Shown here piece by piece: positions 21,736 through 45,744 of a stretch of DNA of 64,000 bases. The stretch is from Actinomycetales bacterium. GTDB taxonomy: Bacteria > Actinomycetota > Actinomycetes > Actinomycetales > Microbacteriaceae. The stretch is from assembly GCA_015655415.1 (NCBI GenBank), contig JAATFB010000025.1, positions 5,237 to 69,236 on the forward strand. The letters are read 5' to 3'. Every line of letters begins with the position of its first letter. The stretch's first letter is position 1. The notes beneath the pieces were generated by a model, which worked only from the letters and a program-made list of their open reading frames with translations, was not told the origin of the DNA and made no database searches. A program made the position numbers and the translations under genes.

Positions 21736-22188
21736 TCAGCCGACGAGCATCACGGCTAGGCACCCGCCGGTCAGGATGCCCGTCAGCGCGGACCAGCCGC
21801 GGTGACGGCGATCGCGGACCGCGAGCGTCGTGCGCGTGACGGCCCACGCGACGGCGACCAGCGCAGCAGCCCGCACTCCTTCTGCGCCCGCCATCGGCAT
21901 GGCCATCCCGGCTTGACCGGACGGGGGCTGCATGCACCCGACCACCGTGACGACGCCCATCGTGAGCAAGTCGATCACGTGCGCACGCACCCGATGCGAT
22001 GCACGGGAGAACGGTGAGAGAGCCATCGCCAGCGCCACCAGCGACAGGCCTGCCGCGACCGAAGCCGTGACCTCGCCGGCCAGCATCGGCACGAGCACGA
22101 CGAGCATCACGGCGTGCAGGCATCCATCGGCGACGTGGGCCACAACTCCGTGCCGAAGGCCTGTCGCCCTTACGCAGATGGACGCCAT
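21736..22188 (-). CDS. hypothetical His/Met-rich membrane protein
   Basis: About 5 hydrophobic segments; last gene of the amine oxidase operon; start could be 22209 or 22188. Confidence 0.6.
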   Translation of the reverse strand: MASICVRATGLRHGVVAHVADGCLHAVMLVVLVPMLAGEVTASVAAGLSLVALAMALSPFSRASHRVRAHVIDLLTMGVVTVVGCMQPPSGQAGMAMPMAGAEGVRAAALVAVAWAVTRTTLAVRDRRHRGWSALTGILTGGCLAVMLVG

Positions 22189-22218
22189 CACGGCGCCCCG
22201 ACCCGTCACTCTCCGGCC

Positions 22219-23691
22219 TCAGTACGGGTACTGCGGTGCTCCGTGCTGAGTGCTGATCCACTTGCGCTCCGTGAACTCCTCGAGATTCGCCTCGCCTCCC
22301 GCCCGGCCCCCGAGCCCCGACGCGCCCAGACCCCCGAACGGCGCGGACGCCTCGTCCGTCGGCGTCGCGTCGTTCACGTGCACCATGCCGCTGCGCACGC
22401 CCCTCGCAAAGCGCTCACCCCGAGCCTCGTCGCCGGTGAGCACCGCGTTCACGAGACCGTACGCCGTGTCGTTGACGAGCTCGAGTGCCTCGTCGTCGGT
22501 GGAGAAGGGCATGACCGGCGCGATCGGCGCGAACACCTCGTCCGTCCACAGCGCCATGTCTCGTGTGAGGCCGGTGACGACGGTCGGACGGAAGAACAGG
22601 CCGTCGCGTGTGCCGCCCTCGACCACCGTCGCCCCCTGCTCGAGCGCACCGCGCAGCAGCAGCTCCGCCCGCGAGGCCTGTCGCTCATTTATCATCGGCC
22701 CGATGCCTGTGGCGGGATCCGTGGGGTCTCCCACGGCGATGCGCCGGGCGCGGGCGGCGAGGTTCTCGACGTAGGCGTCGAGAAGGCTCTCGTGCACGAT
22801 GTGCCGCCCGGCGGAGATGCAGGTCTGACCCTGATAGTGGAACGATGACCACGCGCCGATCATCGCCGCGCGGTCGACGTCCGCATCGTCCAGGACCACG
22901 AGGGCGTTGTTGCCGCCCAGCTCGAGCGAGACCTTCTTCAGCAGTGCGCCCGCCGATCCGGCGATCGCGGACCCGACGGCAGTCGAGCCGGTGAAGTGCA
23001 CCATGTCCACGGCGGGATGCGTGGTGAGCGCGCGGCTGAACTCGAGCCCGCCGCAGACGGCCTGGAAGAGGCCCGCCGGTGCTCCGGCCTCGTCGAAGAG
23101 CGATGCGATCGCCAGGCCGCCGGAGATCGGGGTCTCGGGCGATGCCTTCAGGATGACCGCGTTTCCCAGTGCGATGGCGGGAGCGACGACGCGCATCGCG
23201 AGGATCAGCGGAAAGTTCCACGGCGTGATCGCCGCGATGACGCCCACCGGGATGCGTTCGACGACGCTCGTGCGGCCGGGGTCGTGAGAGACGATCAGCT
23301 CGCCACGGGGGCGCGCGGCCAGACCGGCCGCCGTGAGCAGCTCGTCGATTGCGCCACTGACCTCGTAGTCGGCCTTTCCCCTGATCGAGCCGGTCTCGCG
23401 AACGATGAGGCGCGCGAACTCGTCGGCACGCGCAGACAGCCGCTCGGCCACCTTGCGCACAAGGTCCGCCCGCACGTCGTACGGCTGATGCGCCCAGTCC
23501 TGCTGGGCGCGTCGGGCCGCCGCCGCGGCCCGATCGAGATCGGCGAGCGAGCCGAGGCCGGCCTCGCCGAGCCGAGCGCCGGTCGCCTTCTCCAGAACCG
23601 TGAGCGAGTCGGCCACGGTGCCGAACGTCCCATCGATGTACACGGCCGCCTGTGACCGGTATCCCGTGCCGGCGGAGAGTGTGTCCGTCAT
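22219..23691 (-). CDS. aldehyde dehydrogenase (benzaldehyde dehydrogenase-like)
   Basis: ITPWNFP, FTGST, LELGGNN, YQGQTC (catalytic Cys), EVFAP, PFGG. Confidence 0.93.
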   Translation of the reverse strand: MTDTLSAGTGYRSQAAVYIDGTFGTVADSLTVLEKATGARLGEAGLGSLADLDRAAAAARRAQQDWAHQPYDVRADLVRKVAERLSARADEFARLIVRETGSIRGKADYEVSGAIDELLTAAGLAARPRGELIVSHDPGRTSVVERIPVGVIAAITPWNFPLILAMRVVAPAIALGNAVILKASPETPISGGLAIASLFDEAGAPAGLFQAVCGGLEFSRALTTHPAVDMVHFTGSTAVGSAIAGSAGALLKKVSLELGGNNALVVLDDADVDRAAMIGAWSSFHYQGQTCISAGRHIVHESLLDAYVENLAARARRIAVGDPTDPATGIGPMINERQASRAELLLRGALEQGATVVEGGTRDGLFFRPTVVTGLTRDMALWTDEVFAPIAPVMPFSTDDEALELVNDTAYGLVNAVLTGDEARGERFARGVRSGMVHVNDATPTDEASAPFGGLGASGLGGRAGGEANLEEFTERKWISTQHGAPQYPY

Positions 23692-23723
23692 GGATGCCTC
23701 CTTCGTTCTCTGCTGCCGAATCG

Positions 23724-24614
23724 TCAGCGACCAGCGATGCGCCGGGCGAGGGCCACTCCTCCTGCGACGGGATCGTCGCCCAGGAGAACGACCTCGCGAT
23801 TCGGATGCCTGTGCAGCACTCTCTGGCGCAGCCCGTCGAAGAGCCGTGGCTGCGAGGCGATCACGCTGCCCGCCGCCACCACCGTGGTGCCGACCGCCCC
23901 ACGAGCCACGACCTGGTCGACCAGATCTGCCAGGGCGTTCGCCGCCGTGTCGATCACCGCGGCAGCGCGTGCCGATCCCGCATCCGCGGCGTGGAACACG
24001 GTGGGCGCCCGCGGCGCCCAGTTCGGGATGGTGGGCTCATCGTTCACGGCGCGTGCGAGTCGTTCGGCGTCCGCGACCCCGAACGAGGAGAGCAGCGCGG
24101 CGAGCAGCCCGTCGTCGGGCTCGCCCCTGTCGTGCGCCGACAGTGCAGCCTTCGCCGCCTCGCGCACCAGGGCGGCTCCGCCCCCCTCGTCCCCGATGAC
24201 CCAGCCCCAGCCCCCGGCGTGAACGGGTCTGCCATCGGCGGTGCTTCCCACGGCGATCGACCCGGTGCCGGCGATCACGCCGATGCCGGCATCGAGCCCG
24301 GCGGCCGGCACCAGAAGAGCCGCATCGTTGACGACGATCGCCGGGGGGCCGAGGGCGCTGAGCTCACGACCGAGCTCTGCGGCGAGAGCCGCGTTGTCGC
24401 ATCCCTGCGCACCGACTCCGATGGCGATCACCTCATGGCCTGCCGCCGCCCGTTCGACACGATCGTGCAGCCAGGCGGCCGCGGTGGATGCCGGTTCCGC
24501 CGCCCAGTTCTCCGCGTCATACACGACATCTGCGATGCGACCACCGCCGACCGCCTCGACGCGGACCGCGCACTTCGTTCCGCCTGCATCGGCGCCGACC
24601 AGCACACGGGTCAT
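23724..24614 (-). CDS. BadF/BadG/BcrA/BcrD-family sugar (GlcN/GlcNAc-type) kinase
   Basis: GADAGGTK, VVNDA, IAGTGS, GGWGWVIGDEGGG. Confidence 0.85.
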   Translation of the reverse strand: MTRVLVGADAGGTKCAVRVEAVGGGRIADVVYDAENWAAEPASTAAAWLHDRVERAAAGHEVIAIGVGAQGCDNAALAAELGRELSALGPPAIVVNDAALLVPAAGLDAGIGVIAGTGSIAVGSTADGRPVHAGGWGWVIGDEGGGAALVREAAKAALSAHDRGEPDDGLLAALLSSFGVADAERLARAVNDEPTIPNWAPRAPTVFHAADAGSARAAAVIDTAANALADLVDQVVARGAVGTTVVAAGSVIASQPRLFDGLRQRVLHRHPNREVVLLGDDPVAGGVALARRIAGR

Positions 24615-25630
24615 GCCTCCCCCGCGGAGACCTTGGTGTCAGCGTTATGGAAGACGAACTCCTCGATGTCGAGGCCCCGTACGGCCGCGACGGCCTGCAC
24701 GAGGGATTGCAGCACGGACGCCTCGAGCACCGCTCGCTGCGAAGCCGGCCTATGCGGAACGGCGATGGTATGCAGCGTCTGCGTCTCGTGGACGGGTTCG
24801 GCCGAGACCAGGATCACGTGGTGGCCAGCGTTCGACAGCATGAACGCCAGATCGAGCTCCCTGCTGTCGCCGAGGACCACATGCACGCCACCGCCCGCGG
24901 ATTCCATCGACCCGTGCAGGTACTGCCTCGTGCTCATTCCGGTGGCGGGGATGCGCGCGGCCTCACGGAACAGCAGCGCGCCGGCTTCCGCCGAGCCCGC
25001 AGCCGGTCCGGCCCCGACGAAGTCGGCCGACGTGGCGCTCGCGAAGAGGGGCGCAAGGGTATCCGCCTTCTTGCGAGCCTCTTCATCGAGCTCGGCGAAG
25101 GTCTCGGCGAGGTGCGCCCAACCGGGATCGACGGCCCCGCCACCCCAGACGTCGGCGAGGATGCCAAGGGCCGTGACCGTGGCCGTGTATCCGATGGTCG
25201 ACGCGTAGCTGTCCTCCAGGTTGCCGAGCATGACCGTCGCTGCGCCGCCGAGGGCGCTCATCGGGGACGGGTCGGTGTTCACGACGACAATGCGCTGGTC
25301 GGCGGGAATCGACTCGAGGACGGCGAGGGTCTCCGCGCTCCTGCCGCTCTGGGAAACCCCGACGATCGGATGCTCGCTGCGCGGATACGGCACCGGCAGG
25401 TCACCGGCACCGAGGCGCCAGGAGTGGATCCCGCGCGACCGCAATGCCCACACGGGCGCACCGGCGGCCGCGTAGCTCGCGCCGATGCCGACGAACACCG
25501 GCCCCGGCCCTGATAGCCGGCCATCGGAGGCCAGCGAGAGCACCTGGTCCGTGATACGGGGCACGGCACGCCCCAGCGACTCGCTCTGCTCGCGTCGAGC
25601 GCGCGCGTACGGCACGTACCCCTGCGTCAT
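24611..25630 (-). CDS. double-SIS-domain protein (GlmS-isomerase/GlmD/FrlB-like amino-sugar-phosphate deaminase or deglycase)
   Basis: GIGASY, GVSQSGRSAET, STIGY, ALLFRE, YLHGSME; no glutaminase domain. Confidence 0.8.
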   Translation of the reverse strand: MTQGYVPYARARREQSESLGRAVPRITDQVLSLASDGRLSGPGPVFVGIGASYAAAGAPVWALRSRGIHSWRLGAGDLPVPYPRSEHPIVGVSQSGRSAETLAVLESIPADQRIVVVNTDPSPMSALGGAATVMLGNLEDSYASTIGYTATVTALGILADVWGGGAVDPGWAHLAETFAELDEEARKKADTLAPLFASATSADFVGAGPAAGSAEAGALLFREAARIPATGMSTRQYLHGSMESAGGGVHVVLGDSRELDLAFMLSNAGHHVILVSAEPVHETQTLHTIAVPHRPASQRAVLEASVLQSLVQAVAAVRGLDIEEFVFHNADTKVSAGEA

Positions 25631-26766
25631 TCTCGAACCCCTGTCTGCTCCTGAATGGGATGCGTCATCGCCTCGCTCGGATTCCACTCCGGTGCGACGG
25701 GAGCGACCACGCCGGCCGAGCTAACGACGGGCACCGGAGCACCGGCGGCGGCCGACTCCTCGATCGCCAACATGACGTCGAGCACGTGGTAGGCCAAGGC
25801 CGCGCCGGCTCGCGGCGCACCGCCCGACCGGATCGCCCTCGCAAGGTCGACGACGCCCACGCCCCGCTCCCTGTGCGCTCCCTGCGCGGGAACACTCGTC
25901 CACGCCGTGCTCCTGTCGTCCCCGTCGAGCACCTCGGTTGCACCGTCGAATCCGCTGACCGGCACCCTCAGCACGCCCGTGCTGCCGGTGATCTCGAAGA
26001 GCTGGCGACGCTGCGGCGAGTCGAACGAGTAGACGGAGGTGCCGACAACGCCGCTCTCGAAGCGTGTGAGCACGCTCACGTGAGTGTCGACATCGACCGG
26101 GAAGCGCGTCCCCGCCTCCGGCCCCGAGCCGACGACGCGCTCCCTGCGCGCGCGGTGGCCCTCGGCGTGGACGGCGGCGATCGGCCCCAGCAGCTGCACG
26201 AGGGTCGTGAGGTAGTAGGGCCCGATGTCGAAGAGCGGCCCCGCCCCCTTGGCGAACAGGAACTGCGGGCGCGGATGCCATGAGTCAGGGCCGGGGCCCT
26301 GCATGAGCGTGAGCACGGTCTGGGGTGTGCCGATGCGGCCGGAGGCAAGGAGAGCCGCGGCCGTCTGGATGCCCTCGCCGAGGATGGTGTCGGGCGCATT
26401 GCCCACCAGCACACCGGCCGCCGAAGCGGCGTCCAGCACCTGCCGCGCCTGAGCACGGTCGAGCGCCATGGGCTTCTCAGTCCATACGTGCTTCCTCGCG
26501 GCAATTGCACCGAGCGTCACCTCGGCGTGCGCGGCCGGAATGGTCAGGTTGACGATCAGCTCGACGCCGGGCAAGGCGAGCACCTCCTCTGCCGATCCGC
26601 TGAACGGGATCCCGTACCGCCGGGCCTGTTCCGCGGCCCGCGTCCGGTCGAGGTCGCCGATCCCGAGCAGGTCGATGTCGGGGGCCGCGCGCAGGGTGCG
26701 TAGGTATTCATCCGAGATGTTGCCCGCGCCGATCACGCCGACGCCCACAGGCTCGATCGCGTTCAC
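25627..26766 (-). CDS. Gfo/Idh/MocA family oxidoreductase
   Basis: GVIGAGNIS, NLTIPAAH, WTEKP, APDT.LG, WHP.P.F, GAGPLFDIGPYY. Confidence 0.9.
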   Translation of the reverse strand: MNAIEPVGVGVIGAGNISDEYLRTLRAAPDIDLLGIGDLDRTRAAEQARRYGIPFSGSAEEVLALPGVELIVNLTIPAAHAEVTLGAIAARKHVWTEKPMALDRAQARQVLDAASAAGVLVGNAPDTILGEGIQTAAALLASGRIGTPQTVLTLMQGPGPDSWHPRPQFLFAKGAGPLFDIGPYYLTTLVQLLGPIAAVHAEGHRARRERVVGSGPEAGTRFPVDVDTHVSVLTRFESGVVGTSVYSFDSPQRRQLFEITGSTGVLRVPVSGFDGATEVLDGDDRSTAWTSVPAQGAHRERGVGVVDLARAIRSGGAPRAGAALAYHVLDVMLAIEESAAAGAPVPVVSSAGVVAPVAPEWNPSEAMTHPIQEQTGVRE

Positions 26767-27497
26767 GCCGCCACCAGTCCGCGGAAGAACCGTGCATTCC
26801 TCTCGAGCACCGGGAACACGTCACCGTCGACGACGACCTCCACGATCGGCAGTTCCAGCCACGGACCGGCGACGTCGAGCACCTCATCGAGACGCTGCGA
26901 CACGTCCACGCCGGTGATCGGATGCCTGCCGTCGTACGGCTCGCTCTTCACGTGCAGCAGGCGCACACGGTCGCCCAGCGCGGGAAGGAGCTCGAACACG
27001 TCCGCTCCGCCTACGCTGGCCCAGAACGTGTCCAGCTCGAGCACCACGCGCGGATCGAGCTGCTCGACGAGCAGCTCGTAGGCCGGGCGCCCGTCAACGG
27101 CGGAGGAGAACTCGAAGTCGTGATTGTGGTACCCGACGCGGATGCCTCGCGACTCGGCCGCTTCGGCGGCCCGGCCGATGTCGTCTGCAAATCGTGCGAT
27201 GCCGTCGAGATCGGTGAACGTCGCAGGCGGCACCCACGGAACAAGCACCGTGTCCGCACCCAGCTCGACGGCGGCGTCGAGAACCCGCTCACGGTCGAGC
27301 TCTGTGATCTTGGCGTGCACCGATGCGATCCGCAGCCCTTCAGCCGTCGTAGCAGCCTTGAGCCCCTGTGTGTCGGAGAGGATGTCATACGGTTCGATGT
27401 GACTGAAGCCCAGTCGGGCCAGCGTGTGCAGCGTCGCGGGAAGCTCGGCACCCAGATGATCCTTGACACTGTAGAGCTGTACGCCGAGGGCGGTCAT
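26763..27497 (-). CDS. sugar phosphate isomerase/epimerase (TIM barrel)
   Basis: GVQLYSV, GYHNHDFEF, LELDTFW, LHVK. Confidence 0.85.
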   Translation of the reverse strand: MTALGVQLYSVKDHLGAELPATLHTLARLGFSHIEPYDILSDTQGLKAATTAEGLRIASVHAKITELDRERVLDAAVELGADTVLVPWVPPATFTDLDGIARFADDIGRAAEAAESRGIRVGYHNHDFEFSSAVDGRPAYELLVEQLDPRVVLELDTFWASVGGADVFELLPALGDRVRLLHVKSEPYDGRHPITGVDVSQRLDEVLDVAGPWLELPIVEVVVDGDVFPVLERNARFFRGLVAA

Positions 27498-29458
27498 GGG
27501 TGCTCTCCGTGATCGTGATGCGCGTGCCCGTGGGCCGCGGCTGGCGCGCAGTGATCGCTCGCAGGCACGTCGAGTGTGGGATTGCGGCCGAAGAAGCCAT
27601 ACGGCTTGAAGACGAACCCTGCCGTGTCGACCGGCATCACGGGCCAGTCCTCGATGCGCGGGAAATGCGTCAGCCCGAAGGTGTGCCAGAGGACGATGTC
27701 GGCGTCATCGATGTCTCGGTCGGCGGCCGTCCACCTCGGGAGGCCCGCGCCGCCGGGGTGCATGTTCACGAAATCGCCCGCGGGATAGAGCTCGGTCGGT
27801 TCGTACGGCGTGACCCAGAGGTGCTTCGTGGTGAAGGTGGCGCGCTTGTGGATGTCCGACTCGGCGTCAGCGAGCAGCACCGGCCTGCCTTCAGGGTGGA
27901 GCACGTATCCGACGGGGGCGCCGAGTCGATTGCGCACCGAGGGGTTCGACACCAACCACGCGCGGTTCTTCGCATTGTCCGCGAAGCGCTGGGCCTCCTG
28001 CTCTGTGCGGAGTCGAGTCACCGACTGGGTGAAACCAGTGCCCGTCGGATTCTGCGGCCCCCGCGGCACGAATACCGCCTCTACCTCGTCGACGGCGTTG
28101 TCGACCCCGTCGATCATGGTGTCGAGACGAGCGCTGAACAGGTGCTGATGGAAGGGAGCTCCGAGTCCGGGGGCGAGCTCCGACGCATACGGATACCCGC
28201 CCCCCGGGTAGCTCGAGGTGAACACCACGCCGGTGGCCTTCACCTCGAGCTGGATGCTGCCGTCGAGCGAGAAATACCAGTAGAAGCCGTAGTCGTAGTT
28301 GCCGACCGTCACGAAGAACGAGACGACGAGGCGACGGTTTCGCCGGGAGTCGCTCGACCCGTTCCAATTGTCGAAGTGCTTCCAGAGGATTCCCGCATCC
28401 TCCTCATGGATGCAGATCGCCTGTGGGATGACGCGCACTCCGCCATCGTTGTCGGCCAGCGTGGCATCCACATAGGTGACCTCGCCGACGCAGTCGCAGC
28501 CCAGTTCCAGCGAGTTGGCGAACCCGCCGAGGAGGTATTCTCCGCAGTCGAAAAAGTTCTGGAACCAGCGTTGCGGAGCCGGGTCGCCGTATGGCACCAC
28601 CATCTCGGCGATCGAGGCGCGGTAGAGCACGGGGCGCTGGAGTCCACCGTCGTCGATCGAGACGTTGTGAAGCACGAGTCCTTCACGCTGATCAAAGCCC
28701 ACCTGCAGCCGCCAGCCCGCCCAGTCGATGACACCGTCGTCGTCGATCTCGAAGCTCGGCCCCTGCGGCTGGGTGATCTGAATGGGCCTGAGCCCCGGCC
28801 GCTCCGGCTCGCCCACCCACTCGGGGAGGTGGAAGTTCCCGTCCTCCTCGGGCACGGGGAGCTCCACGTGGTCGATCACGTCGAGCACCTCGCGCGCGAC
28901 GACGTCGACGATGACGGTGACGCCGTCGACGGGGTGGGCCCAGCCGAGATCGTGCGGGGTCTTCTGCACGAAGGTGAAGCATCGCTGGATGCGACGCCCC
29001 TGCTCATCGGCGCTGGCGACACCGGCCGAGAGCGGATTCACGCGCAGCGTGCTGATGTCGGTGAGACCGCGTCTGCGCATGGCTGCCAGCCACCGCTCGT
29101 CCCGATGCACGATCTCTTCCACGAGCGAGAACTCCTCAAGGACGACCGGCACCTGGCCGTCCACCGCGACGTCGAGCTGAACGACCGAGATCACGCGATC
29201 CTCGGCCGGAGACACGAGAACGTCGTGCTGCACCCCGCTCGACATGTCGATGAGCATCGCCCTGAACCGGCGCGCACGCACGTCGCCTGCGAGGAGCGTG
29301 CGCTTGTCCTGCTCGTAGAGGCCGAAGTAGGCGACGCGGGTCGTCGCCGTGACCAGCCCGTCACGGCGCAGGATTCCCATGCTCGCGTCGATCTCCTCGC
29401 CGCGGAGCGAGGCGAGTGCGTGCGCGACGTCCGGCGAGAGATGGGGGGCAGTGTTCAC
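27494..29458 (-). CDS. copper/TPQ-dependent primary amine oxidase
   Basis: FDCGEY (catalytic Asp), LGCDC, IHEEDAGILWKH, TVGNYDY (TPQ consensus), HQH and GLTHFP Cu ligands; GTG start after CAGGAG; no signal peptide. Confidence 0.95.
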   Translation of the reverse strand: MNTAPHLSPDVAHALASLRGEEIDASMGILRRDGLVTATTRVAYFGLYEQDKRTLLAGDVRARRFRAMLIDMSSGVQHDVLVSPAEDRVISVVQLDVAVDGQVPVVLEEFSLVEEIVHRDERWLAAMRRRGLTDISTLRVNPLSAGVASADEQGRRIQRCFTFVQKTPHDLGWAHPVDGVTVIVDVVAREVLDVIDHVELPVPEEDGNFHLPEWVGEPERPGLRPIQITQPQGPSFEIDDDGVIDWAGWRLQVGFDQREGLVLHNVSIDDGGLQRPVLYRASIAEMVVPYGDPAPQRWFQNFFDCGEYLLGGFANSLELGCDCVGEVTYVDATLADNDGGVRVIPQAICIHEEDAGILWKHFDNWNGSSDSRRNRRLVVSFFVTVGNYDYGFYWYFSLDGSIQLEVKATGVVFTSSYPGGGYPYASELAPGLGAPFHQHLFSARLDTMIDGVDNAVDEVEAVFVPRGPQNPTGTGFTQSVTRLRTEQEAQRFADNAKNRAWLVSNPSVRNRLGAPVGYVLHPEGRPVLLADAESDIHKRATFTTKHLWVTPYEPTELYPAGDFVNMHPGGAGLPRWTAADRDIDDADIVLWHTFGLTHFPRIEDWPVMPVDTAGFVFKPYGFFGRNPTLDVPASDHCAPAAAHGHAHHDHGEHP

Positions 29459-29504
29459 CGATGTCTCCTGCAATCGTTCGGAGTGGCGCGACGACATCCG
29501 CTAT

Positions 29505-29532: not shown

Positions 29533-29580
29533 TATGTGACATGGAGCGCAAGCGCGCCGTGCGCGCCACGGCTGCCGCCG

Positions 29581-36899: not shown

Positions 36900-38018
36900 T
36901 CAGAGCTCACCGTCGGGCACGGGTCGTCCTGCCCGACGGATCTCTCCTCTGCCGTACAGGTCGGCGTTCTGCGCCCGGCCCGCCGCGGCCTCGTCGTCGT
37001 CTGCGTAGAGCCAGCACCTGGCCCATTGCCCGTCGTCGACGGCGAACTTCGGTGGCGCCTCCTCGGAGCAGCGCGCCATCGCGAACGGACAGCGCGGATG
37101 GAACCGGCATCCGCTCGGAGGGTCGATCAGGCTCGGCGGCTGGCCGATGTCGCGCACGCGATTCTCCACGGCCCGCGATGGGTCAGGTGCGGAGGCGATG
37201 AGCAGCTGCGTGTAGGGGTGCGCGGCGTTCTGCGTGACCTGCTCCGAGTCGCCGTGCTCGACGAGCTGTCCCGCGTACATGACGGCCGTGTCCGCGGCGA
37301 AGTATCGGGCGGAGGCGATGTCGTGCGTCACGTAGAGCAGCGCGACCCGGCGCTCCTCGGTCAGCCTGCGCAGCAGATTGAGCACGCCGAGCCGGATCGA
37401 CACGTCGAGGCTCGAGACCGGCTCGTCGGCGAGGAACACGTCGGGATCGGCGGCGAGAGCGCGCGCGATGGAGATTCGCTGCAGCTGTCCGCCGGAGAGT
37501 TCGTGCGGATACTTCCGCGTGAACTGGGCCGCCGGCCGAAGGCTCACCTGGGCGAGCAGGTCCTCGATGATGGATCGCCGTTGCGCCGGCGACGCCGCCT
37601 TGTGGTGGATGCGCACGGCACGCAGCAGCGTTCGCGCGATCGTCGCCACCGGATTGAACGAGCCGAACGGATCCTGCAGGATCAGCTGCACGCGGCTGAC
37701 ATGGTCGCGGAACCGCTTGCCTCCCTTCGCGTCGACGACCTCGCCCCGATAGACGACCTCGCCGCCGGTGAGCGGATGCAAGGCTGCGAGCAGCCGAGCG
37801 AACGTGGACTTGCCCGAGCCCGACTCCCCGACCAGTGCGGTGATCCGCCCGGCGTAGAGCACGAGCGACACGTCGTCGACAGCGTGCACCACCCGTCTGC
37901 CGCGTCGTGTGAAGGGATTGCCTCGCACCACGAATTCCTTCGTGACATGACGTGCTTCGAGCACCGCGGCACCCGGTTCCGCCCGGTCGCGTGTGACGGT
38001 CATCTCGGCCGTGGTCAT
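36900..38018 (-). CDS. Opp-type ABC ATP-binding protein (OppF-like)
   Basis: [42 protein letters not shown]. Confidence 0.92.
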
Positions 38019-40075
38019 CGTGCCTCCTCGATAAGCCGCTCGTCTGTCTCATGAACGGAGGCTCGGTCCGGTACCGTCCCGCCACCCTCGTACAGCAGAC
38101 AGGCGGCCTCCGCCTGTCGCCATTCGGCCTCCCCCGAGAGGGCGAAGAGCGGCGGCACGACTACCGTGCAACGATCGAACGCGAGAGGACAGCGCGGATT
38201 GAACGCGCATCCGCTGGGTGGATGCCGCAGATCGGGCGGCGATCCGGGGATGCCCGCCAGCTCGCGCTTCGGTCCCGAGAGTGTGGGGAACGACCCGAGC
38301 AGGCCCCTGCTGTAGGGATGCCGCGGGTTGCGATAGAACTCCTTCGCGTCTGCCAGCTCGACGACACGTCCCGCATACATGACGGCGATGGTGTCCGACA
38401 TCTCGATCAGCAGCGACAGGTCGTGCGTGATGAAGATCACGGAGAAGCCGAGCCTGTCCTTCAGCTCGATGATCTTCTCGACGATCTGGCGTTGGATCAC
38501 GACGTCGAGGGCCGTAGTCGGCTCGTCCATCACGATGATCTCCGGGTCGAGCGCGAGTCCGACCGCGATCATCGCGCGTTGCCGCATGCCCCCGGAAAGC
38601 TCGTGCGGATATGCGCCGGCGCGGTCGGTCTGGATGCCGACCAGGTCGAGCAGTTCGAGCACCCGTGCCGCACGCTCGCTCGCCGACATCGAAGGACGGT
38701 GCGCCGTGATGGCGTCCTCGATCTGCTTGCCGATGCTGAGGATCGGGTTCAGGGCGTGCATCGCGGACTGGAACACGATGGCGAGCTCCTCCCACCGGAA
38801 TCTCCGCAATTCCTCGTCGCCCATGGTGAGGATGTCGACCACGGTTCCGTCGTCGCGCTGGTAGAGCATCTCGCCCGCGCTGATCCAGGCGGGGGGCTTG
38901 TGCAGCCGGGTGATCGCGTGGGCGAGCGTGGACTTGCCGGAACCCGACTCACCCGCGATGCCGAGCACCTCGCCGCGTCGCAGCGTGAGCGTGACGTCGT
39001 TGACCGCCTTGGTGGTGGATCCTTCACCGACGTAGTCGACTTCGAGACCGTTGATCTGCAGAATGACATCGCCCGTCCGTCCTCCGGAGACGGACGCCCG
39101 CGCCTCGCGCCTGCTCCTGCGCGGCGCCTTGAGGCGCGTCGGTCGCACCTGAGCCCGCTGCGCCTTCCTGGTGCCGATGCCGGCCTGGCGCAGTCGCGGG
39201 TTGATGAACTCGTCGATTCCGAAGTTGACGAGCGACAGTCCGGTGCCCAGCAGCGCGATCGCCGCGCCGGCCGGAACGAACCACCACCAGGAGCCGGTGA
39301 GCAGCGCGCTGGAGACCTGAGCCCAGTAGAGAATCGTGCCCCACGACCACTCGGTGACATTCGTGAGCCCGAGGAATGCGAGGCTCGCCTGCGTGAGGAT
39401 GGCGCCGGTCACGGTGCCGAGGAACGACGCGGCGATGACGGCGACCTGGTTCGGGAAGATGTCACGGAAGATGATGCTCGTCGTTCGCTCGCCCGTGGCC
39501 CTGGCCGCCTCGACGAAGTCGCGTTTGCGCAGGGAGAGTGTCTGCGCCCTCAGGACCCTGGCTCCCCATGCCCAGCCAGTGATCGAGATCACCAGGATGA
39601 TCCCGAACGATCCGGTCTTCGGCAGATAGGCGGCGAGGATGACCGTGAGCGGCAGTGCGGGGATGACCAGGAAGATGTTCGCCAGGAGGGACAGGATCTC
39701 GTCCGAGATGCCGCCTAGATAGCCCGCCGCCAGCCCGACGACGACGGACAGAACGGTGGCGAACACCGCCGCCAGCACACCGACGATCATCGACACCTGC
39801 GTGCCATAGAGCATCTGCGACAGGATGTCCTGCCCGGTCTGAGTCGTTCCCAGCCAGTGCTCGGGACTCGGCGGCTGCAGCGTCGCCTTGCTCACCGACG
39901 ACGGGTCGTATGGTGCTATGAACGGCCCGATGATGGCGAGCACGCAGAAGATGGCGACGATGATGACGCCGGTGAGCGTCAACGGGCGGCGGAAGGCGCG
40001 CAGCCATCCGAATCGCGAGGAGACCACCGAGTCCGTGGACTCGACCTCCTGAACGGTGGCGACGTTGATGGCCAC
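38015..40075 (-). CDS. fused OppC-like permease / OppD-like ATPase
   Basis: N-half HWLGT..GQD, ARVLRAQ..FVEAARATG; C-half [27 protein letters not shown]; single frame. Confidence 0.88.
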   Translation of the reverse strand: MAINVATVQEVESTDSVVSSRFGWLRAFRRPLTLTGVIIVAIFCVLAIIGPFIAPYDPSSVSKATLQPPSPEHWLGTTQTGQDILSQMLYGTQVSMIVGVLAAVFATVLSVVVGLAAGYLGGISDEILSLLANIFLVIPALPLTVILAAYLPKTGSFGIILVISITGWAWGARVLRAQTLSLRKRDFVEAARATGERTTSIIFRDIFPNQVAVIAASFLGTVTGAILTQASLAFLGLTNVTEWSWGTILYWAQVSSALLTGSWWWFVPAGAAIALLGTGLSLVNFGIDEFINPRLRQAGIGTRKAQRAQVRPTRLKAPRRSRREARASVSGGRTGDVILQINGLEVDYVGEGSTTKAVNDVTLTLRRGEVLGIAGESGSGKSTLAHAITRLHKPPAWISAGEMLYQRDDGTVVDILTMGDEELRRFRWEELAIVFQSAMHALNPILSIGKQIEDAITAHRPSMSASERAARVLELLDLVGIQTDRAGAYPHELSGGMRQRAMIAVGLALDPEIIVMDEPTTALDVVIQRQIVEKIIELKDRLGFSVIFITHDLSLLIEMSDTIAVMYAGRVVELADAKEFYRNPRHPYSRGLLGSFPTLSGPKRELAGIPGSPPDLRHPPSGCAFNPRCPLAFDRCTVVVPPLFALSGEAEWRQAEAACLLYEGGGTVPDRASVHETDERLIEEAR

Positions 40076-40077
40076 GA

Positions 40078-41052
40078 TCAGCCCTCCCTGGTTCGCGGAT
40101 CGAGGAACACGTACGCGAGATCGGCGAGCATGTTCGCCACGAGCACGGTCACGGTGATGACGAGAAAGATGCCCTGCATGAGGGGGTAGTCCTGGGCCTG
40201 TGCGGCCTTGAAGAGCACAGTGCCGATGCCCGGATAGTTGAAGACGACCTCGGTCACGATCGATCCTCCGACGACGAAGCCCAGAGACATGGCAAAGCTC
40301 GAGAACGACGGCAGCATCGCGTTCCTGGCCGCGTAGGTGAACATCACCCGCCGTTTGGGGAGCCCCTTCGCCTCGGCGAGCTTCACGTAGTCCTCGCTCA
40401 GCGTGGTGATCATCATGTTGCGCATGCCGATCAGCCAGCCTCCGATCGAGGCGACGACGATGGTCAGCGCGGGAAGCGCCGCGTAGTACACCGCCGACGA
40501 GATGAAGCCCCAGTTGAAGCCGATCGTCTCGGTCACGGCGTACCCGCCGGACAGCGGGAACCAGTGCAGGACTATGGCGAACAACAGCACGACGCAGATC
40601 GCGAACCAGAAGTAGGGGATCGACGACAGCAGCGTCGTGATCGGAATGAGCGAGTCGAGCCAGCTTCCTCGCTTCCAGCCCACGATCATCCCGAGCCCGG
40701 TGCCGATCACGAAGCCGAGCACCGTGCACACGGAGATCAGCACGAGGGTCCACCCGATGCTCTGGCCGAGCACGTCGGACACCGGGGTTGGGTAGTACGC
40801 GTAGGAGATGCCGAAGTCGCCGGTGAAGACGTTGTGCCAGTAGTCCACATACTGCTGCCACAGGCTCGCATGGCCCTGGCCGAACAGCACGCGCAGGGCC
40901 TGCACGGCCGCGGGGGTGAGCTTGCCGTGGAACTTCTCGATCAGTGCGTCGGCCGGATCCCCCGGCATGATGCGCGGCAGGAGGAAGTTGAGGCTGATCG
41001 CGGCCCAGGCAGTGATCAGATAGAAGAACCCTCTTCGGAGCAGAACCCGCAT
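40078..41052 (-). CDS. Opp-type ABC permease (OppB-like)
   Basis: NFLLPRIMPGDP, GDFGIS, EDYVKLAEAKGL, EVVFNYPGIG, DYPLMQG. Confidence 0.92.
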   Translation of the reverse strand: MRVLLRRGFFYLITAWAAISLNFLLPRIMPGDPADALIEKFHGKLTPAAVQALRVLFGQGHASLWQQYVDYWHNVFTGDFGISYAYYPTPVSDVLGQSIGWTLVLISVCTVLGFVIGTGLGMIVGWKRGSWLDSLIPITTLLSSIPYFWFAICVVLLFAIVLHWFPLSGGYAVTETIGFNWGFISSAVYYAALPALTIVVASIGGWLIGMRNMMITTLSEDYVKLAEAKGLPKRRVMFTYAARNAMLPSFSSFAMSLGFVVGGSIVTEVVFNYPGIGTVLFKAAQAQDYPLMQGIFLVITVTVLVANMLADLAYVFLDPRTREG

Positions 41053-41057
41053 CTCGC

Positions 41058-41756
41058 TCAGTCCTCGTTCTCTCGCGCGGACGGCAGATCCGCGGCCCAG
41101 CTCATCGCGGCCGTGACGATGGTTCGCACCGCCGGTTCGCCCCACGCCGCCATGCCGTGACCGAACTGCACCCAGCAGACGCGGCCGCGACCGGCCCGAT
41201 GGGTCGTCATGAGCGGTTCGGCGCCGTAAGGGGCATCCCGCCACACCGCCACCCGTACGCCAGGCATCATCTCGGTGCGGTAGTGCTCGTGCGGCACGAC
41301 GGAGCCCTCCACTCCCGCAAGCATGGGAGCCAGCGGATGCCCATGATCCACATGCAGCACGACGTCGCCGCTGTGCGGCCTCGGTCCGTGCGAGCGGAAG
41401 ACGACGCCGGCGAGCCGATCGAACGCGTCGCCCTGCGGCAGCACGGTGGAGTGGAGGGAGACCAGGCCTCCACCGGACTCCAGCGCGCATCGCAGAGCCT
41501 CCGACTGCACCGTCTTCAGGTGAGCGCCCGCCGTGTACAGCACCACGAGCTCGTCGGCGCGCACTTTCTCCAGTGCTGCCGTACCGAACCGAACCGGCGC
41601 GACGAGGCCGAGCGCGGCGAGCAGGTCCTGCAGCACGTCACTCGCGGTGAAGAGGTCCTCGTAGACGTCGTCGCCGGCCACCACGACAAGCGCACGTCGC
41701 GGCTCGAGGCGAGCGGCGACGTCGCCGACGAGGGCGGGCGATGATGTGGGGGGCAT
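41058..41756 (-). CDS. ThuA-like domain protein
   Basis: AGDDVYED, LYTAG, GGGLVSLHS, HP, HEHY, GRGRVCWVQFGH; related to 34439-35110. Confidence 0.75.
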   Translation of the reverse strand: MPPTSSPALVGDVAARLEPRRALVVVAGDDVYEDLFTASDVLQDLLAALGLVAPVRFGTAALEKVRADELVVLYTAGAHLKTVQSEALRCALESGGGLVSLHSTVLPQGDAFDRLAGVVFRSHGPRPHSGDVVLHVDHGHPLAPMLAGVEGSVVPHEHYRTEMMPGVRVAVWRDAPYGAEPLMTTHRAGRGRVCWVQFGHGMAAWGEPAVRTIVTAAMSWAADLPSARENED

Positions 41757-41781
41757 GGGGGTGCTTCCGGTGGGTGGCGGG

Positions 41782-42855
41782 TCAGTAGGTGGAGACGGTC
41801 TCTCCAACGGGATTCCAGTAGCCGCGTTCGATCCCCTCGGGTATCGTCGCGGCCGTCCGGTCCAGCGGCAGGCCGACACGGGCGCGAGCGGCGCTGCTCT
41901 GATAGGTGGCGAAGATGATCTCGGCCCCCGCGGCGCCGAGGCGAGCGGCGCATACCGGCTCACGCCCGGAGTCGAGCGCCTCGATGACGTCTTCGATCGC
42001 GGCCGCGGTCGCCTGGAAGATCGCGGGATCGATGCCGTGATCCCACGTGCTCGCGTCGCGCACGGAGGGAGCGTCGTAGCGCTCGCCGGCCTCCCCGAAG
42101 CGTTGTACGTCGCAACCGTCGCCGGTCACGGTGATGCGACCGCGCGACCCCTCGATGATCACGCCGAGCGGCACGGTCGGATGCAGCACCGGATGCTGCC
42201 GGTCGCGTCCCGTCGTGATGGTGGCGTGCACGCCGTCCGGCCACGACACCGACGTCAGCGAAGCAGACTCCATCAACGCCCCGTACACGTACCGGCTCAT
42301 GCTGACGTCGACCTGACCCAGCACGTCGGCCGGAGCCGAGTCGTCCCGGTAGAACAGCAGCAGGTCGACGATGTGGCTGCCCCAGTCCAGCAGATTCGGG
42401 CAGTGCGCCTCGAACGAGTGCACCTCGCCGATGGCGCCGGAGCGGATCGCCTCCCGTGCGAAGCGGTGCACGGGATCGAGACGCCGTTGCAGGTTGAACG
42501 TCAGCTGCACGCCGGCGCACTCCGCCCGCTCGACGACATCGAGCACGTCGGCATACGATAGCGCGATCGGCTTCTCACAGTGCACGGCCTTCACGCCGGC
42601 GGCAACGGCGGCGAGGACGGCGGCCTTGTGCAGCGCCGGCGGCGTGCAGACCGAGACGATATCGGGACGCTCGATCCGGAGCATCCGCTCGAAGTCATCG
42701 TAGGCACGGGGAATGCCGAAGTCGGCGGCCAGCGTCTCGCGGGCCGAGCCCACGGGGTCGGCGACAGCAACAAGAGTGGCGAACCGGGCGTAGGCGGCGG
42801 CATGGACCCTGGCCTGACTGCCGGCCGCGACGATGGCCGCCGTGTGTCTCCGCAT
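41782..42855 (-). CDS. Gfo/Idh/MocA family oxidoreductase
   Basis: PDIVSVCTPP..H, HCEKP, QRR, LLDWGSHIVD. Confidence 0.87.
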   Translation of the reverse strand: MRRHTAAIVAAGSQARVHAAAYARFATLVAVADPVGSARETLAADFGIPRAYDDFERMLRIERPDIVSVCTPPALHKAAVLAAVAAGVKAVHCEKPIALSYADVLDVVERAECAGVQLTFNLQRRLDPVHRFAREAIRSGAIGEVHSFEAHCPNLLDWGSHIVDLLLFYRDDSAPADVLGQVDVSMSRYVYGALMESASLTSVSWPDGVHATITTGRDRQHPVLHPTVPLGVIIEGSRGRITVTGDGCDVQRFGEAGERYDAPSVRDASTWDHGIDPAIFQATAAAIEDVIEALDSGREPVCAARLGAAGAEIIFATYQSSAARARVGLPLDRTAATIPEGIERGYWNPVGETVSTY

Positions 42856-42970
42856 CCGCTTCTCCCTCGAAAGTGGCTATCCCAAAGCTATACCACTTTG
42901 AGCCAGCGTAAGACGAGAAGAGAAACCGGGCAAGGACTCTCAAGACGATTTACACGCCTGCAATCTGTTC

Positions 42971-42984
42971 GGCAAGCGCTTCCC
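42971..42984. promoter_or_regulatory. LacI-family operator GGCAAGCGCTTCCC
   Basis: Reverse complement GGGAAGCGCTTGCC matches the 17847 site at 13/14. Confidence 0.55.
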
Positions 42985-43023
42985 ATCCGCATCACGGGCT
43001 CGGAAACGTCTCCTGCCCGGACA

Positions 43024-43050
43024 TTCCACGTATGACCACTGCCGACCACT
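43024..43050. promoter_or_regulatory. three CCAC boxes at exact 10-bp period
   Basis: TTCCAC (43024), GACCAC (43034), GACCAC (43044) upstream of the Zn-dehydrogenase. Confidence 0.5.
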
Positions 43051-43096
43051 CGGTACACTGGCCACGAATGACGCCGGCATCGCGAAAGGACGGATC

Positions 43097-44029
43097 ATGA
43101 AGATCAGCACGCTCGTCGCGGCCCGCACCTCGCGGGTCGAGCACAGAGCGACTCCGCGACCCGCGGCGGGCGAGATCCTGGTCGAGGTCATCGCATGCGG
43201 CGTGTGCACCTCGGACCTCGATGTCTGGCGCAAGGGGCCAGGAGGAGGCAGGCCGACGGAGCTCGGGCACGAGGTCGTGGGCAGAGTCGCCGCCGTCGGC
43301 AGCGCGAACTCCCGCTGGCGCGATGGCGACCTCGTGACCGGGCTCGGCGGGCCCGGATTCGCCACCCACATGGTCACCGACGAGCGGGCCCTGCTTCCGG
43401 TCCCCGCCGGGATCCCGGTCGAGCACGCCATCGGGGAGCCGGTCGCCACACTCGAGGAGGCGATGGCACGCTGTGCCCCCGCACCGGGAACGCGTATCGC
43501 CGTCGTCGGGCTCGGATTCATGGGGCTGGGACTCGTTCAGCTCGCGCTGGCGCGTGCGCCTCGAGAGGTGATCGGCGTCGACCCCAGCGCCACCGCTCGT
43601 CAGCGCGCGCTCGGGCTGGGCTGTGCCGTGGCGCTTCATCCGGAGGAGGTGGCGGCCTATCTTCAGCACGCCGATGACCGAAGGCCGGAACTCGTGATCG
43701 AGGCCACCGGAGTCACCTCCGGCCTCGAGACGGCATCGCCGCTGGTCGCGCCGTTCGGCACCCTCTGCATCGTGGGTTACCACCACGCCGGGACGGCGAA
43801 GCTCGACATGGAGCTCTGGTACAAGGGCGCAACGGTCGTCAACGGCTTCTGCCCCGACCGCGGCCGCGTCATGAGGGCGATGGACGACGCGCTCCACCTG
43901 GTGTCCCAGCGGCGCTTCAGCTACGCCCCGCTCATCACCCACAGCTTCGCACTCGACCAGGTCGACGCCGCGTATGAACTGATGGACGCCCGCGACCCGT
44001 CCTTCGTGAAGGGCATCATCGCGCCGTAG
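43097..44029 (+). CDS. zinc-binding (MDR) alcohol/sugar dehydrogenase
   Basis: CGVCTSD, LGHE, GLGFMG, IEATG; lacks the 4-Cys structural-Zn lobe. Confidence 0.88.
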   Translation: MKISTLVAARTSRVEHRATPRPAAGEILVEVIACGVCTSDLDVWRKGPGGGRPTELGHEVVGRVAAVGSANSRWRDGDLVTGLGGPGFATHMVTDERALLPVPAGIPVEHAIGEPVATLEEAMARCAPAPGTRIAVVGLGFMGLGLVQLALARAPREVIGVDPSATARQRALGLGCAVALHPEEVAAYLQHADDRRPELVIEATGVTSGLETASPLVAPFGTLCIVGYHHAGTAKLDMELWYKGATVVNGFCPDRGRVMRAMDDALHLVSQRRFSYAPLITHSFALDQVDAAYELMDARDPSFVKGIIAP

Positions 44030-44037
44030 TGCACGCC

Positions 44038-45744
44038 TTACGACATGCACACCCCCAGCACGAACCACGCGCTGTGCGGAATCCACTGCTCCGCCCAGCG
44101 CCACTCCTCGCCCTCCCCTGCCTCCTGCGGCAGAAAGGCGATGCCGGCCTCGTCCGACGGCGACGAGGTAATGCCGTTCACGATCGCGCCAGGCGTGTTC
44201 TGATAGCGGCCCAGATACTCGACGTTATTCCGGCCCCTGCCCTGCAGCATGCACGCGTCGAAGGGATTCAGTCCGCCGATCCACGCAAGGCAGTCCGCGG
44301 CCAGGCGTCGCAGCCGCCGCGCGAGGGCGGCACCGCATTCCTCCAGCTCGGAGACCGATGCGGCGGCACAGGCGATGGACCCGAGATTGGCGTTCTCACC
44401 CTGCCACCAATAGCCGGTCTCGTTGTCGTGCGGGAAGAAGAACGCCTCTCGGGGCCCCTCCGCGTGCTCGTCGTGCACGAGCTGTCTCGGGTAGCCGAAC
44501 GGGTTGTCCACCGAGTCGGTGCGCGCGACGAGCGACGCCATGACGTCGACCGCGAGCCGCCGTGCCGCCGGCGTCGCGACATCCCCCGGGAACAGCGCGG
44601 CGAACCGGGTCAGAGCCACGACGGGCAGGCCAGTCTCGACGGCATGGAAATACGGCCGGCCGAGCCGATCGCCGACGAGATGGCCCGCACCCGACCCATC
44701 GACCGTGAACCTGTCGCACAGCTGACCGATCCGCCGGCGCGCCGCCTCGAGATAGCGCGCTCCCCCGTCCGCGGCCGCCAGCTCGGCGGCCGCCAGCAGC
44801 GCGCAGTACTCGTCGACCACCGACTCCACGCCGTCGAACAGGTATGCGGCGTTGTGCAGCTCCAGATGGGCGAAGCCCTCGCGCGCCGCCTTCAGGTAGT
44901 CGTCAGCCGTATGGTCCCCGCTCACCTCGAGCGTCGCGGCGCGGGCGAGTGCCGCGATCGCGAGGCCGCCACCGTGCCGATACGCCGCCTGCCACCGTTG
45001 CGTGCGCACGCTGTTCTGCAACGGCGCCGTGATCACGCGCTCACGGAGGTCCTTGGTCAGGGCGTCGAAGACCGCAGTGTAGAAGTAGCCGTCGGACGAG
45101 CGGAAGTGCACGAGGAAGTCCGCGCCGAAGAGGCCCTCGTCGCGGAGCCGTTCCCACTGGCTGGTGACGAACCCGGGGTGTCGCGACACGAGTTCGTCTC
45201 GCGCAGCCATGAGCGCCCAGGCGCAGAGGGGGATCTGCTGCGGGCTCATCATGCGGGTGTAGGTGAGGTGGCTGAGGAACTTGCTGTAGTCGCCCGAGGC
45301 GTCCAGCCAGCCGCCGCTGGCATCCACCTCTGCGCCGCTCTCGTCCGCGTAGAAGCGGGCATGCCGGTCCTTGCGATCGATCTCACCCGACGACCGGCTG
45401 GCGCGGAACGCCGCGGTGACGTCCGCCACCGTGACGCGCGCGAGCCGATCCGGGCCGACGGTGACGACGGCAGAGACCTCCTCGCCGTCGACCATCACGG
45501 TCAGGCGATGCTACCCTGCCGACTCGACCTTCCCGAAGTCGATGCGGCGGTACGTCTGGCGCCCCCAGCCGGCGACCACGACGGCCGGGCCGATGCCGAT
45601 GGAGAGCTCCTGATCGCCGACGCGAAGGACGGCCGTGCCCACCGAGGCCTCGGGAGACGTGGCCAGGATCGCCGCCTTCGGCGCGCCCGTGTCGTACCCC
45701 AGATGATTCACGACCAGCACTGGATCGTCGCCGACGGGTTTCAC
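44038..45744 (-). pseudogene. GH9 glycoside hydrolase (exo-beta-glucosaminidase-like), interrupted by an in-frame TAG at 45511-45513
   Basis: N-terminal Ig-like VNHLGY..PKAA; DASGGWLDASGD.SK.LSHL, PQQIP, YFHA.E.GLP, NPFGYPRQ, HDNETGYWWQGENA, W..GLNPFD.CM, EQWIPH; both ORFs are in the same frame. Confidence 0.8.

Follow-up and report, generated by a model that had tools for sequence, protein, structure and literature searches.

Why is a copper amine oxidase encoded in the midst of genes for amino-sugar breakdown, and how much of what surrounds it forms one system? The question is raised by 24 kb (positions 21736 to 45744) of a stretch of 64,000 nucleotides, hereafter the window, from contig JAATFB010000025.1 (C93) of the Actinomycetales bacterium genome GCA_015655415.1 (3.16 Mb, 88% complete; window G+C content 69%), and the closest named relatives of the window proteins are in Humibacter, family Microbacteriaceae. 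Among these genes are those for a topaquinone (TPQ) copper amine oxidase, a double-SIS protein, a BadF-family sugar kinase, an aldehyde dehydrogenase (ALDH), three Gfo/Idh/MocA proteins (Gfo1 to Gfo3) and a GH9 hydrolase. A preliminary description of the window treated the 24 kb as a single system that imports and dismantles a compound with both sugar and primary-amine parts. We find that a transporter, Gfo2, a GntR regulator, the oxidase, the ALDH, the kinase and the SIS protein recur as a core, which partly supports this view, whereas the greater part of the 24 kb consists of optional genes. The enzymes are each of a known family and parts of the cluster echo known pathways; their combination appears to be an undescribed form of the amino-sugar catabolic cluster, and an open-access search over titles and the beginnings of abstracts, with supplements outside its scope, found no description of an amine oxidase combined with amino-sugar genes. 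Reading from families and gene context, we suggest, with about as much doubt as conviction, that the cell imports an amino-sugar conjugate bearing a primary-amine arm, splits it and degrades the halves separately, all under one shared operator.

Results

A core of oxidase and amino-sugar genes

Two surveys define which genes recur together. The first was anchored on the SIS protein and took the best 80 of 89 confirmed loci in a collection of genomes at species level; flanks were limited to 10 kb per side, some being shorter, so that distal genes are undercounted. The loci span Microbacteriaceae, Streptomycetaceae, Pseudonocardiaceae, Streptosporangiaceae and others. A GntR regulator is present in 77 of the 80 loci, the BadF kinase in 74, Gfo2 in 70 and a copper amine oxidase in 63; an ALDH is found in 42 (the window type in 6 of the 80 and an AldH/GabD1-like type in 36). 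The TIM-barrel protein TIM1 is paired with Gfo1 in 44/80 loci, a second one, TIM2, with a short-chain dehydrogenase/reductase (SDR) in 36/80, GH9 is present in 20/80 and a Zn-dehydrogenase in only 7/80, the last number being limited by flank length.

The second survey took the reverse direction and covered 401 genomes of the family. Oxidases occur in 116 of them, with 15 matches at 72-100% identity to the window oxidase and 132 at 59% or less. Fourteen of the 15 close matches, which belong to the clade described below, adjoin an SIS orthologue. Thirty-nine of the 132 others, mostly the closest ones together with a spread, served as controls: none of the 39 control loci holds the SIS protein, BadF, a Gfo2 orthologue or GH9, and the control oxidases mostly adjoin amino-acid or amine permeases. 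Gfo2 orthologues (at least 73% identity) were found in 14 of the 401 genomes, all 14 with a clade oxidase and an SIS orthologue, and no SIS orthologue was found among the 101 genomes with only non-clade oxidases. The window oxidase is the sole oxidase found in its genome. GH9 is encoded in seven of the family genomes, all seven with an SIS orthologue, and was not found in nine of the 14 that carry the core.

From the co-occurrence counts and the nine core genomes without GH9 it follows that the remainder of the 24 kb is optional, i.e. GH9 (which is thereby rejected as an essential part), the Opp-type importer with this particular solute-binding protein (SBP) and the TIM-barrel, ThuA and Zn-dehydrogenase genes. 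Rare co-occurrence of oxidase homologues with the sugar genes, which the preliminary description had named as speaking against its proposal, is not what we observe.

The cluster oxidases form one clade

The oxidase gene (27494 to 29497, minus strand) encodes the domains PF01179, PF21994 and PF02728, and its product passes the NCBIfam primary-amine oxidase model NF008559 (834.8 bits; cut-off 651); a GTG at 29458 behind AGGAG appears to be the likelier start. The cofactor motif T-x-x-N-Y-D-Y is kept (T397, N400, Y401 and Y403), the catalytic D317, the TPQ residue Y401 and the copper ligands H450, H452 and H611 are intact, and all of these residues are invariant in 64 of 64 clade rows. In a quick IQ-TREE search with 62 of 103 rows and SH-aLRT support only, the cluster oxidases form one clade (SH-aLRT 100) on a stem of 0.5. 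The sequence shows no evident signal peptide, and the oxidase is likely cytoplasmic.

The best solved relative is AGAO, the phenylethylamine oxidase of Arthrobacter globiformis (E 1e-225, 754 bits). In contrast to AGAO, the clade oxidase sits among sugar genes and has its own clade on a long stem, and three residues differ: A135 is replaced by N154 (Asn in 64/64 clade rows), Y296 by F315 (Phe in 64/64) and L358 by N377 (Asn in 61/64). The available text of a study of AGAO assigns Ala135 and Leu358 to the entrance of the channel and a role in semiquinone stabilisation to Tyr296 (PMC12714705). The positions of A135 and L358 vary among the control oxidases too, and the aromatic channel residues F123, W186, Y321 and W378, deeper in than the changed mouth positions, are kept in the cluster oxidases. 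From these residues we infer that the substrate may be more polar than phenylethylamine.

Chance juxtaposition of an ordinary phenylethylamine oxidase and sugar genes is barely credible. The bit score against AGAO and the presence of oxidases in more than a quarter of the family genomes would suit it, but it is contradicted by the separate clade, by the SIS-locus counts, by the family survey in which clade members adjoin the SIS gene and controls lack the sugar genes, and by the recurrence of the cluster in Alphaproteobacteria.

After the kinase gene come the ALDH gene (22219 to 23691, minus strand; PF00171) and then a gene for a small, His/Met-bearing membrane protein without Pfam family (21736 to 22209, minus strand). 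A home-built hidden Markov model finds a single family of this protein in 42/80 SIS loci. The family is fast-evolving, 120-200 aa long, with conserved Met, His-Asp and Gly-His-His positions, and travels with the ALDH and the oxidase. In Sinorhizobium sp. B11 the same slot is taken by a protein of the PpoB2 copper-chaperone family (PF09948). We consider the small membrane protein a likely copper-delivery partner of the oxidase and a candidate new copper chaperone for TPQ oxidases; a literature search on copper chaperones returned nothing on PpoB2 or DUF2182.

Different oxidases occupy one slot and track Gfo2

Three oxidase lineages occupy the slot: the clade, a 40%-identical type and a 55-57%-identical type. 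A plasmid of Sinorhizobium sp. B11 encodes a sugar ATP-binding cassette (ABC) importer, Gfo2 (73%), GntR, SIS (51%) and BadF (53%), with no GH9 at the locus; its oxidase is only 40% identical to that of the window and is adjoined by an ALDH like succinic semialdehyde dehydrogenase (SSADH), the PpoB2-family protein and a PotABCD-like importer. Of 80 metagenome loci anchored on Gfo2, 13 have this oxidase type, and the gene order among them is of two kinds. The 55-57% type occurs in L093, L209 and L211, following BadF in Paractinoplanes and facing Gfo2 in L209 and L211, where no SIS gene lies within the short stretch examined. The ALDH and the transporter are also replaced by unrelated proteins across loci.

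Gfo2 ends at most 2.2 kb from the oxidase in 58 of the 59 loci holding both. Two family genomes (G250 and G112) have kept SIS, BadF and two GH9 genes and have neither a Gfo2 orthologue nor an oxidase match, and three loci without Gfo2 (L059, L066 and L072) come from genomes, of completeness not given, in which no oxidase match was found. For 15 of the 17 SIS loci without an oxidase the genome was searched, and 12 of these genomes encode one at another site, with 69% and 76% identity in two cases. The oxidase, then, tracks Gfo2 and not SIS.

That unrelated oxidases were recruited more than once, in one case together with an amine-type importer, suggests a free and fairly ordinary primary amine as the oxidase substrate, and the position of the Sinorhizobium oxidase behind a PotABCD-like importer is as expected for a free amine. 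A PotD-like protein before that oxidase (L161:20196-21233) carries Lys instead of the Ser of its best solved match at the third residue past a conserved Trp; its ligand may have an acid end, as in an omega-amino acid. An ethanolamine-permease-like carrier lies with GlnA-like genes at 12 loci. This carrier, the GabD1/Sad-type ALDHs and the PotD-like protein hint at a small polar amine and are not decisive.

One operator precedes both Gfo2 and GH9

A direct repeat, (A/C)TACC twice with 11-bp spacing, is predicted to be the operator of the cluster. The position weight matrix (PWM) for it was trained on 138 Gfo2 upstream regions; the repeat is present in 77% of this training set and in 0.2% of shuffles. 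A scan of the whole genome gave eight matches, the best of which precedes Gfo2 (31482 to 31497) and the second-best of which lies in the candidate GH9 promoter (45829 to 45844), outside the training set. Across the 80 SIS loci, 92 of 93 matches lie within 350 bases of the start of a cluster gene, 60 of the 93 being Gfo2 training sites; the 39 control oxidase loci together hold one match. In alphaproteobacterial loci, too, the operator precedes Gfo2. Two weaker sites at 42890 and 43023 (42890 to 43038; scores 9.0 and 9.5, below the cut-off of 12) lie between the divergent genes for Gfo3 and the Zn-dehydrogenase. The GH9 copy is situated between the -35-like and -10-like hexamers of a promoter-like site (45849 to 45820) that is itself no better than chance, and in a promoter and terminator scan of the region sites were no more frequent than in shuffles. 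A DasR-like palindrome was found at one upstream site only and was set aside for the direct repeat.

Two GntR-UTRA regulators with 59% identity to each other, GntR1 (29581 to 30354) and GntR2 (31810 to 32571, both minus strand), are candidates for binding the repeat. As one operator heads both Gfo2 and GH9, the sub-operons are consistent with one system. The four 4-bp overlaps that the preliminary description reported between the oxidase, TIM1, Gfo1, SIS and BadF genes are all present; contrary to what had been supposed, the oxidase is probably not the first gene of this unit, since the Gfo2-GntR1 pair is found 83 bp upstream of it, with the strongest operator in front of Gfo2.

The kinase and the SIS protein

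The SIS protein (24611 to 25630, minus strand) was assigned by motif, profile and fold comparisons. Its structural model (pLDDT 90.7) is most similar to the glucosamine-6-phosphate (GlcN-6P) deaminase of P. furiosus (2CB0; TM score 0.80), with GlmS also among the best matches; to the SIS-type deaminases GlmD and NagB-II and to GlmS the identity is about 18% and scores are below the NCBIfam cut-offs (22.2 bits against NF046059, far below its cut-off of 430). Residues E223, H239 and K333 are invariant, and E223 and H239 are 16 residues apart, the spacing described for the Glu/His pair of SIS deaminases (PMC10285752). On this model the protein is likely a hexosamine-6-phosphate deaminase. The BadF kinase (23724 to 24614, minus strand; PF01869), whose best solved relative is the MurNAc/GlcNAc kinase 8ZO3, is likely a hexosamine kinase. 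Of the two functions considered in the preliminary description, GlcN-6P deaminase and FrlB-type deglycase, the fold bears out the first, and likeness to FrlB is slight: the Amadori deglycase 3EUA is last of 27 profile matches of the SIS protein (E 0.0024), and no FrlB model is among its NCBIfam matches listed at E 0.01. The FrlB-type Amadori route was rejected on this ranking.

A different deglycase would accord with two features. Leu220 stands where GlmS and NagB-II have a Lys, three residues before the catalytic Glu and with the invariant Tyr142 nearby, and the genome has a separate canonical nagB; the substrate may thus be N-substituted. The SIS protein would then be a deglycase for N-substituted glucosamine-6-phosphate (Heyns-type), the kinase phosphorylating the conjugate, SIS freeing the amine, and oxidase and ALDH burning it. 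Distant SIS homologues (30-34%) accompanied by genes for amino-acid transport or processing, one of them in Klebsiella beside an frl-like SIS/PfkB/TIM operon, are in line with this, and the rank of 3EUA excludes the fructosamine version and not the Heyns version. However, the oxidase tracks Gfo2 rather than SIS, SIS and BadF stand with GH9 alone in several loci, and Gfo2 would have no clear job; we therefore regard the deglycase as quite unlikely and retain the deaminase within the conjugate pathway.

The E. coli frlABCD-frlR and Salmonella gfr operons combine a kinase, an SIS protein, a TIM-barrel protein and a GntR-type regulator, and the logic of the window cluster is similar. Compared with them, the window has a BadF and not a PfkB kinase, an SIS protein least like 3EUA, and in addition the oxidase, ALDH and Gfo2. 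On a Klebsiella plasmid (NZ_CP065839.1; L162:7988-20984), a distant SIS gene lies with BadF and a YfcC transporter beside an frl-type operon of SIS, PfkB, amino-acid ABC and TIM-barrel genes, possibly pairing Heyns and Amadori routes on a conjugative plasmid. Plasmids of Mesorhizobium and Rhodobacter (L164 and L165) carry distant SIS, BadF and sugar ABC genes, accompanied either by a 3-keto-5-aminohexanoate cleavage protein or by another SIS protein and an argH-like lyase. Judged by such neighbours, the SIS subfamily may serve several conjugates.

GH9 and the solute-binding protein

In the assembly, codon 78 of the GH9 gene (44038 to 45744, minus strand) is an in-frame TAG (45511 to 45513). 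A contig from run X1 has a G at 45512, which gives a sense codon and is its sole difference from the window over 2820 bases, and none of 28 aligned homologue rows has a stop codon. The TAG is likely an assembly error or a strain variant; as X1 differs at this codon only and may be the window's source sample, an assembly error is the simplest reading, and a certain pseudogene was dropped.

The window GH9 keeps the DASGD and EQW segments, and an intact homologue (L086) matches only the exo-GH9 structures 3H7L, 6GDT and 5DGQ (Vibrio/Photobacterium, VC0615/PBPRA0520 group; E at most 1e-114), which makes the window protein an exo-beta-glucosaminidase-type hydrolase. The available text on the Vibrio and Photobacterium enzymes reports a preference for (GlcN)2 over cellobiose (PMC6096475), and that of a 2018 review describes GH9 glucosaminidases as then undocumented in actinobacteria and gives a different chitosan operon, csnREFGHK (PMC6097792). 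The SBP, a family-5 lipoprotein (35177 to 36838, minus strand), has Vibrio chito-oligosaccharide-binding proteins as its closest solved relatives (E about 1e-55). For SBP and GH9 the Vibrio parallel drawn earlier is therefore upheld. The Vibrio chitin-oligosaccharide operon also shares a BadF-family kinase with the window, the family to which we take the Vibrio glucosamine kinase to belong. It further includes a phosphorylase, a hexosaminidase and a mutase, none of which was found in the Pfam scan of the region; the window cluster adds SIS, Gfo2, oxidase and ALDH, and GH9 and this SBP are optional in it.

These likenesses suggest another reading, namely two co-regulated but chemically separate routes, one for chitosan-type oligomers (SBP, GH9, kinase and SIS) and one for a free amine of the same decaying biomass (oxidase and ALDH). 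The affinity of GH9 and SBP to Vibrio proteins acting on chito-oligosaccharides (PMC6096475) fits such an arrangement, as do the SIS orthologue in every GH9-carrying family genome, the amine permeases and GlnA-like genes that often adjoin, and one clade oxidase (in G372) that lies with ALDH and amine-permease/GlnA-like genes and has no sugar genes adjoining. In G250 and G112 (L014 and L015), SIS, BadF and the two GH9 genes stand beside a D-serine-dehydratase-domain enzyme and an amidohydrolase, the families of OngC and OngB of oxidised-chitin catabolism as the available text describes them, a likeness by family only (PMC9537276). Separate routes would, however, leave unexplained the place of the oxidase between Gfo2 and SIS, seen in 58 of 59 loci, the joint loss of oxidase and Gfo2, the recruitment of unrelated oxidases to the same spot, and the fact that in nine of the 14 core genomes no GH9 was found. 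We hold them to be unlikely, and the split conjugate remains our preferred reading.

Gfo2 and the keto-glycoside modules

The top sequence and fold matches of Gfo2 (30351 to 31388, minus strand) are KanD2 and GenD2, at 27-28% identity and with a narrow margin over other sugar dehydrogenases. KanD2 and GenD2 are aminoglycoside C3'' dehydrogenases, but they are biosynthetic; GenD2 oxidises C3'' and is partnered by an aminotransferase (PMC4340712). No aminotransferase (PLP partner) was found by the Pfam scan of the cluster region or among the common core neighbours. More distant Gfo2 homologues (62-63%; L246-L248) belong to another type of sugar cluster, whose genes are ROK-like, GntR, Gfo, TIM, aldolase-like and SIS-like; no oxidase match lies within the stretch examined, and certain plasmid loci resemble these three.

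Oxidation at C3 lets TIM-barrel eliminases cleave glycosides (PMC10628242). By analogy, glycoside elimination after C3 oxidation is likely the job of the optional TIM/Gfo modules, and TIM1 (26763 to 27497, minus strand; AP_endonuc_2, PF01261) is a candidate 3-keto-glycoside eliminase or epimerase. Compared by family only, the Agrobacterium OGE operon, the levoglucosan pathway and YcjQRS likewise combine Gfo and TIM-barrel proteins; they differ from the present cluster in that the modules here are optional, and the available text mentions no amine oxidase in them (PMC10628242). The YcjS/YcjR/YcjQ chemistry, to which the preliminary description had compared the cluster, is not the heart of the system: YcjQRS was rejected as the core on the rarity of the Zn-dehydrogenase.

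The Gfo2 matches also bear on the proposal that the oxidase acts on the sugar itself, removing nitrogen either from the 6-aminomethyl group of an aminoglycoside-type compound or from the end of the beta-lysine arm of a streptothricin. In its favour are the Asn residues at two positions of the channel mouth (as located in PMC12714705), aminoglycoside dehydrogenases as best folds of Gfo2, and keto-glycoside modules that could cleave such glycosides (PMC10628242). Against this, the aromatic channel residues of the oxidase are kept, unrelated oxidases with quite different channels substitute for it, the core has no aminotransferase, amidase or clear aminocyclitol route, and the ALDH would give a uronate that a 6-kinase cannot use. 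We judge this proposal decidedly unlikely. An improbable extension of it is a widespread soil route for amino-sugar antibiotics or pseudo-oligosaccharides, in which a KanD2/GenD2-like dehydrogenase would open the molecule and a polar-channel oxidase would strip sugar-borne or beta-lysyl aminomethyl nitrogen; if true, it would give the first case of a TPQ oxidase with this specialisation. Three unrelated oxidase lineages, one of them beside a polyamine-type ABC importer, favour an ordinary freed amine over attack on an aminoglycoside or streptothricin. Of the substrates considered in the preliminary description, the amine-sugar conjugate is favoured and the aminoglycoside- or streptothricin-like compounds are weakened. 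Further candidates that we considered are ethanolamine from GPI-type glycans, conjugates of polyamines or GABA, N-methylglucosamine, iminosugars, kanosamine and fragments of mycothiol, any of which would be speculative.

Other genes of the window

The inventory rests on codon-bias gene calls and Pfam/NCBIfam scans, by which each gene listed in the preliminary description was found again. The optional genes on the minus strand are those for Gfo1 (25627 to 26766, paired with TIM1), the NAD-dependent epimerase/SDR (32689 to 33663; PF01370), TIM2 (33660 to 34421; AP_endonuc_2), two ThuA-domain proteins (34439 to 35110, PF06283, and 41058 to 41756) and Gfo3 (41782 to 42855); the Zn-dependent dehydrogenase (43097 to 44029) is on the plus strand. 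The Opp-type ABC importer (36900 to 41052, minus strand) comprises OppB (40078-41052), OppC-OppD (38015-40075) and OppF (36900-38018). OppC permease and OppD ATPase are a single frame of 686 aa, and the same fusion is seen in several relatives.

Adjoining the cluster at 13277-21642 is a further one with genes for LacI, ThuA, MFS, Gfo, DUF993, TIM-barrel and glycerate kinase proteins. At 12 of the 80 loci, from several genera, a DUF993 homologue is encoded no more than 10 kb from the SIS gene, so that the DUF993 cluster may take a product of this pathway; the window copy has no strong operator. A second TIM-barrel/Gfo pair (C93:78611-80499), 41% and 53% identical to TIM1 and Gfo1, lies about 10 kb past the end of the window. 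No RNA data set was listed as matching the locus, and in two RNA runs the matches to it are only 18-32 bases long. The one DNA run that matches the locus is a wood-decay metagenome; it may be the source sample and hence is not independent evidence of habitat.

Discussion

Combining co-occurrence, replacement and operator data, we propose the following sequence of steps for the degradation of a conjugate: (i) the ABC importer would bring in the conjugate, either by itself or as the end of an oligomer, (ii) Gfo2 would oxidise the sugar, probably at C3, leading to elimination of the amine-bearing part, (iii) where present, the TIM, ThuA, Gfo1 and SDR proteins would help this elimination and GH9 would trim beta-glucosaminides, widening the range of linkages, (iv) the BadF kinase and the SIS protein would convert glucosamine to fructose-6-phosphate and ammonia, (v) the cytoplasmic copper oxidase, supplied with copper by the small membrane protein, would convert the amine set free, R-CH2NH2 (probably a small polar one, a diamine or an omega-amino acid), to R-CHO, ammonia and H2O2, and (vi) the ALDH would oxidise R-CHO to R-COOH. 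The GntR-UTRA proteins would repress the genes via the direct repeat. That oxidase and ALDH together turn -CH2NH2 into -COOH, as first proposed, remains the natural reading of this pair.

Several observations weigh against this pathway. The loci are related by descent and their counts are not independent trials; in 11 of the 80, Gfo2 and SIS are kept without an adjacent oxidase, and the clade oxidase of G372 is an exception to the linkage with sugar genes. No copy of the operator was found upstream of the Pot-oxidase unit of Sinorhizobium, a unit adjoined by a ROK regulator. Dehydrogenases acting at other carbons score almost level with KanD2 and GenD2, so that, at the identity of Gfo2 to these two, C3 oxidation is a lead only. 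A GH109-type redox glycosidase is not among the fold matches listed, and minimal clusters have no other cleaving enzyme. Finally, the SIS protein lacks the Lys kept in GlmS and NagB-II, and a canonical nagB is encoded separately.

The cluster marks a route that recurs among soil Actinomycetota and in some Alphaproteobacteria for the catabolism of a nitrogen-rich compound, one that our literature searches did not link to these genes; the full core is carried by 14 of the 401 family genomes. An oxidase clade, subfamilies of SIS and Gfo proteins, an operator and a probable copper-delivery protein are defined by it. With an antibiotic as substrate, this would be a pathway of antibiotic catabolism whose genes are defined. 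More generally, a named substrate would give hundreds of proteins an assignment and place a further step in the turnover of amino sugars and nitrogen in soil.

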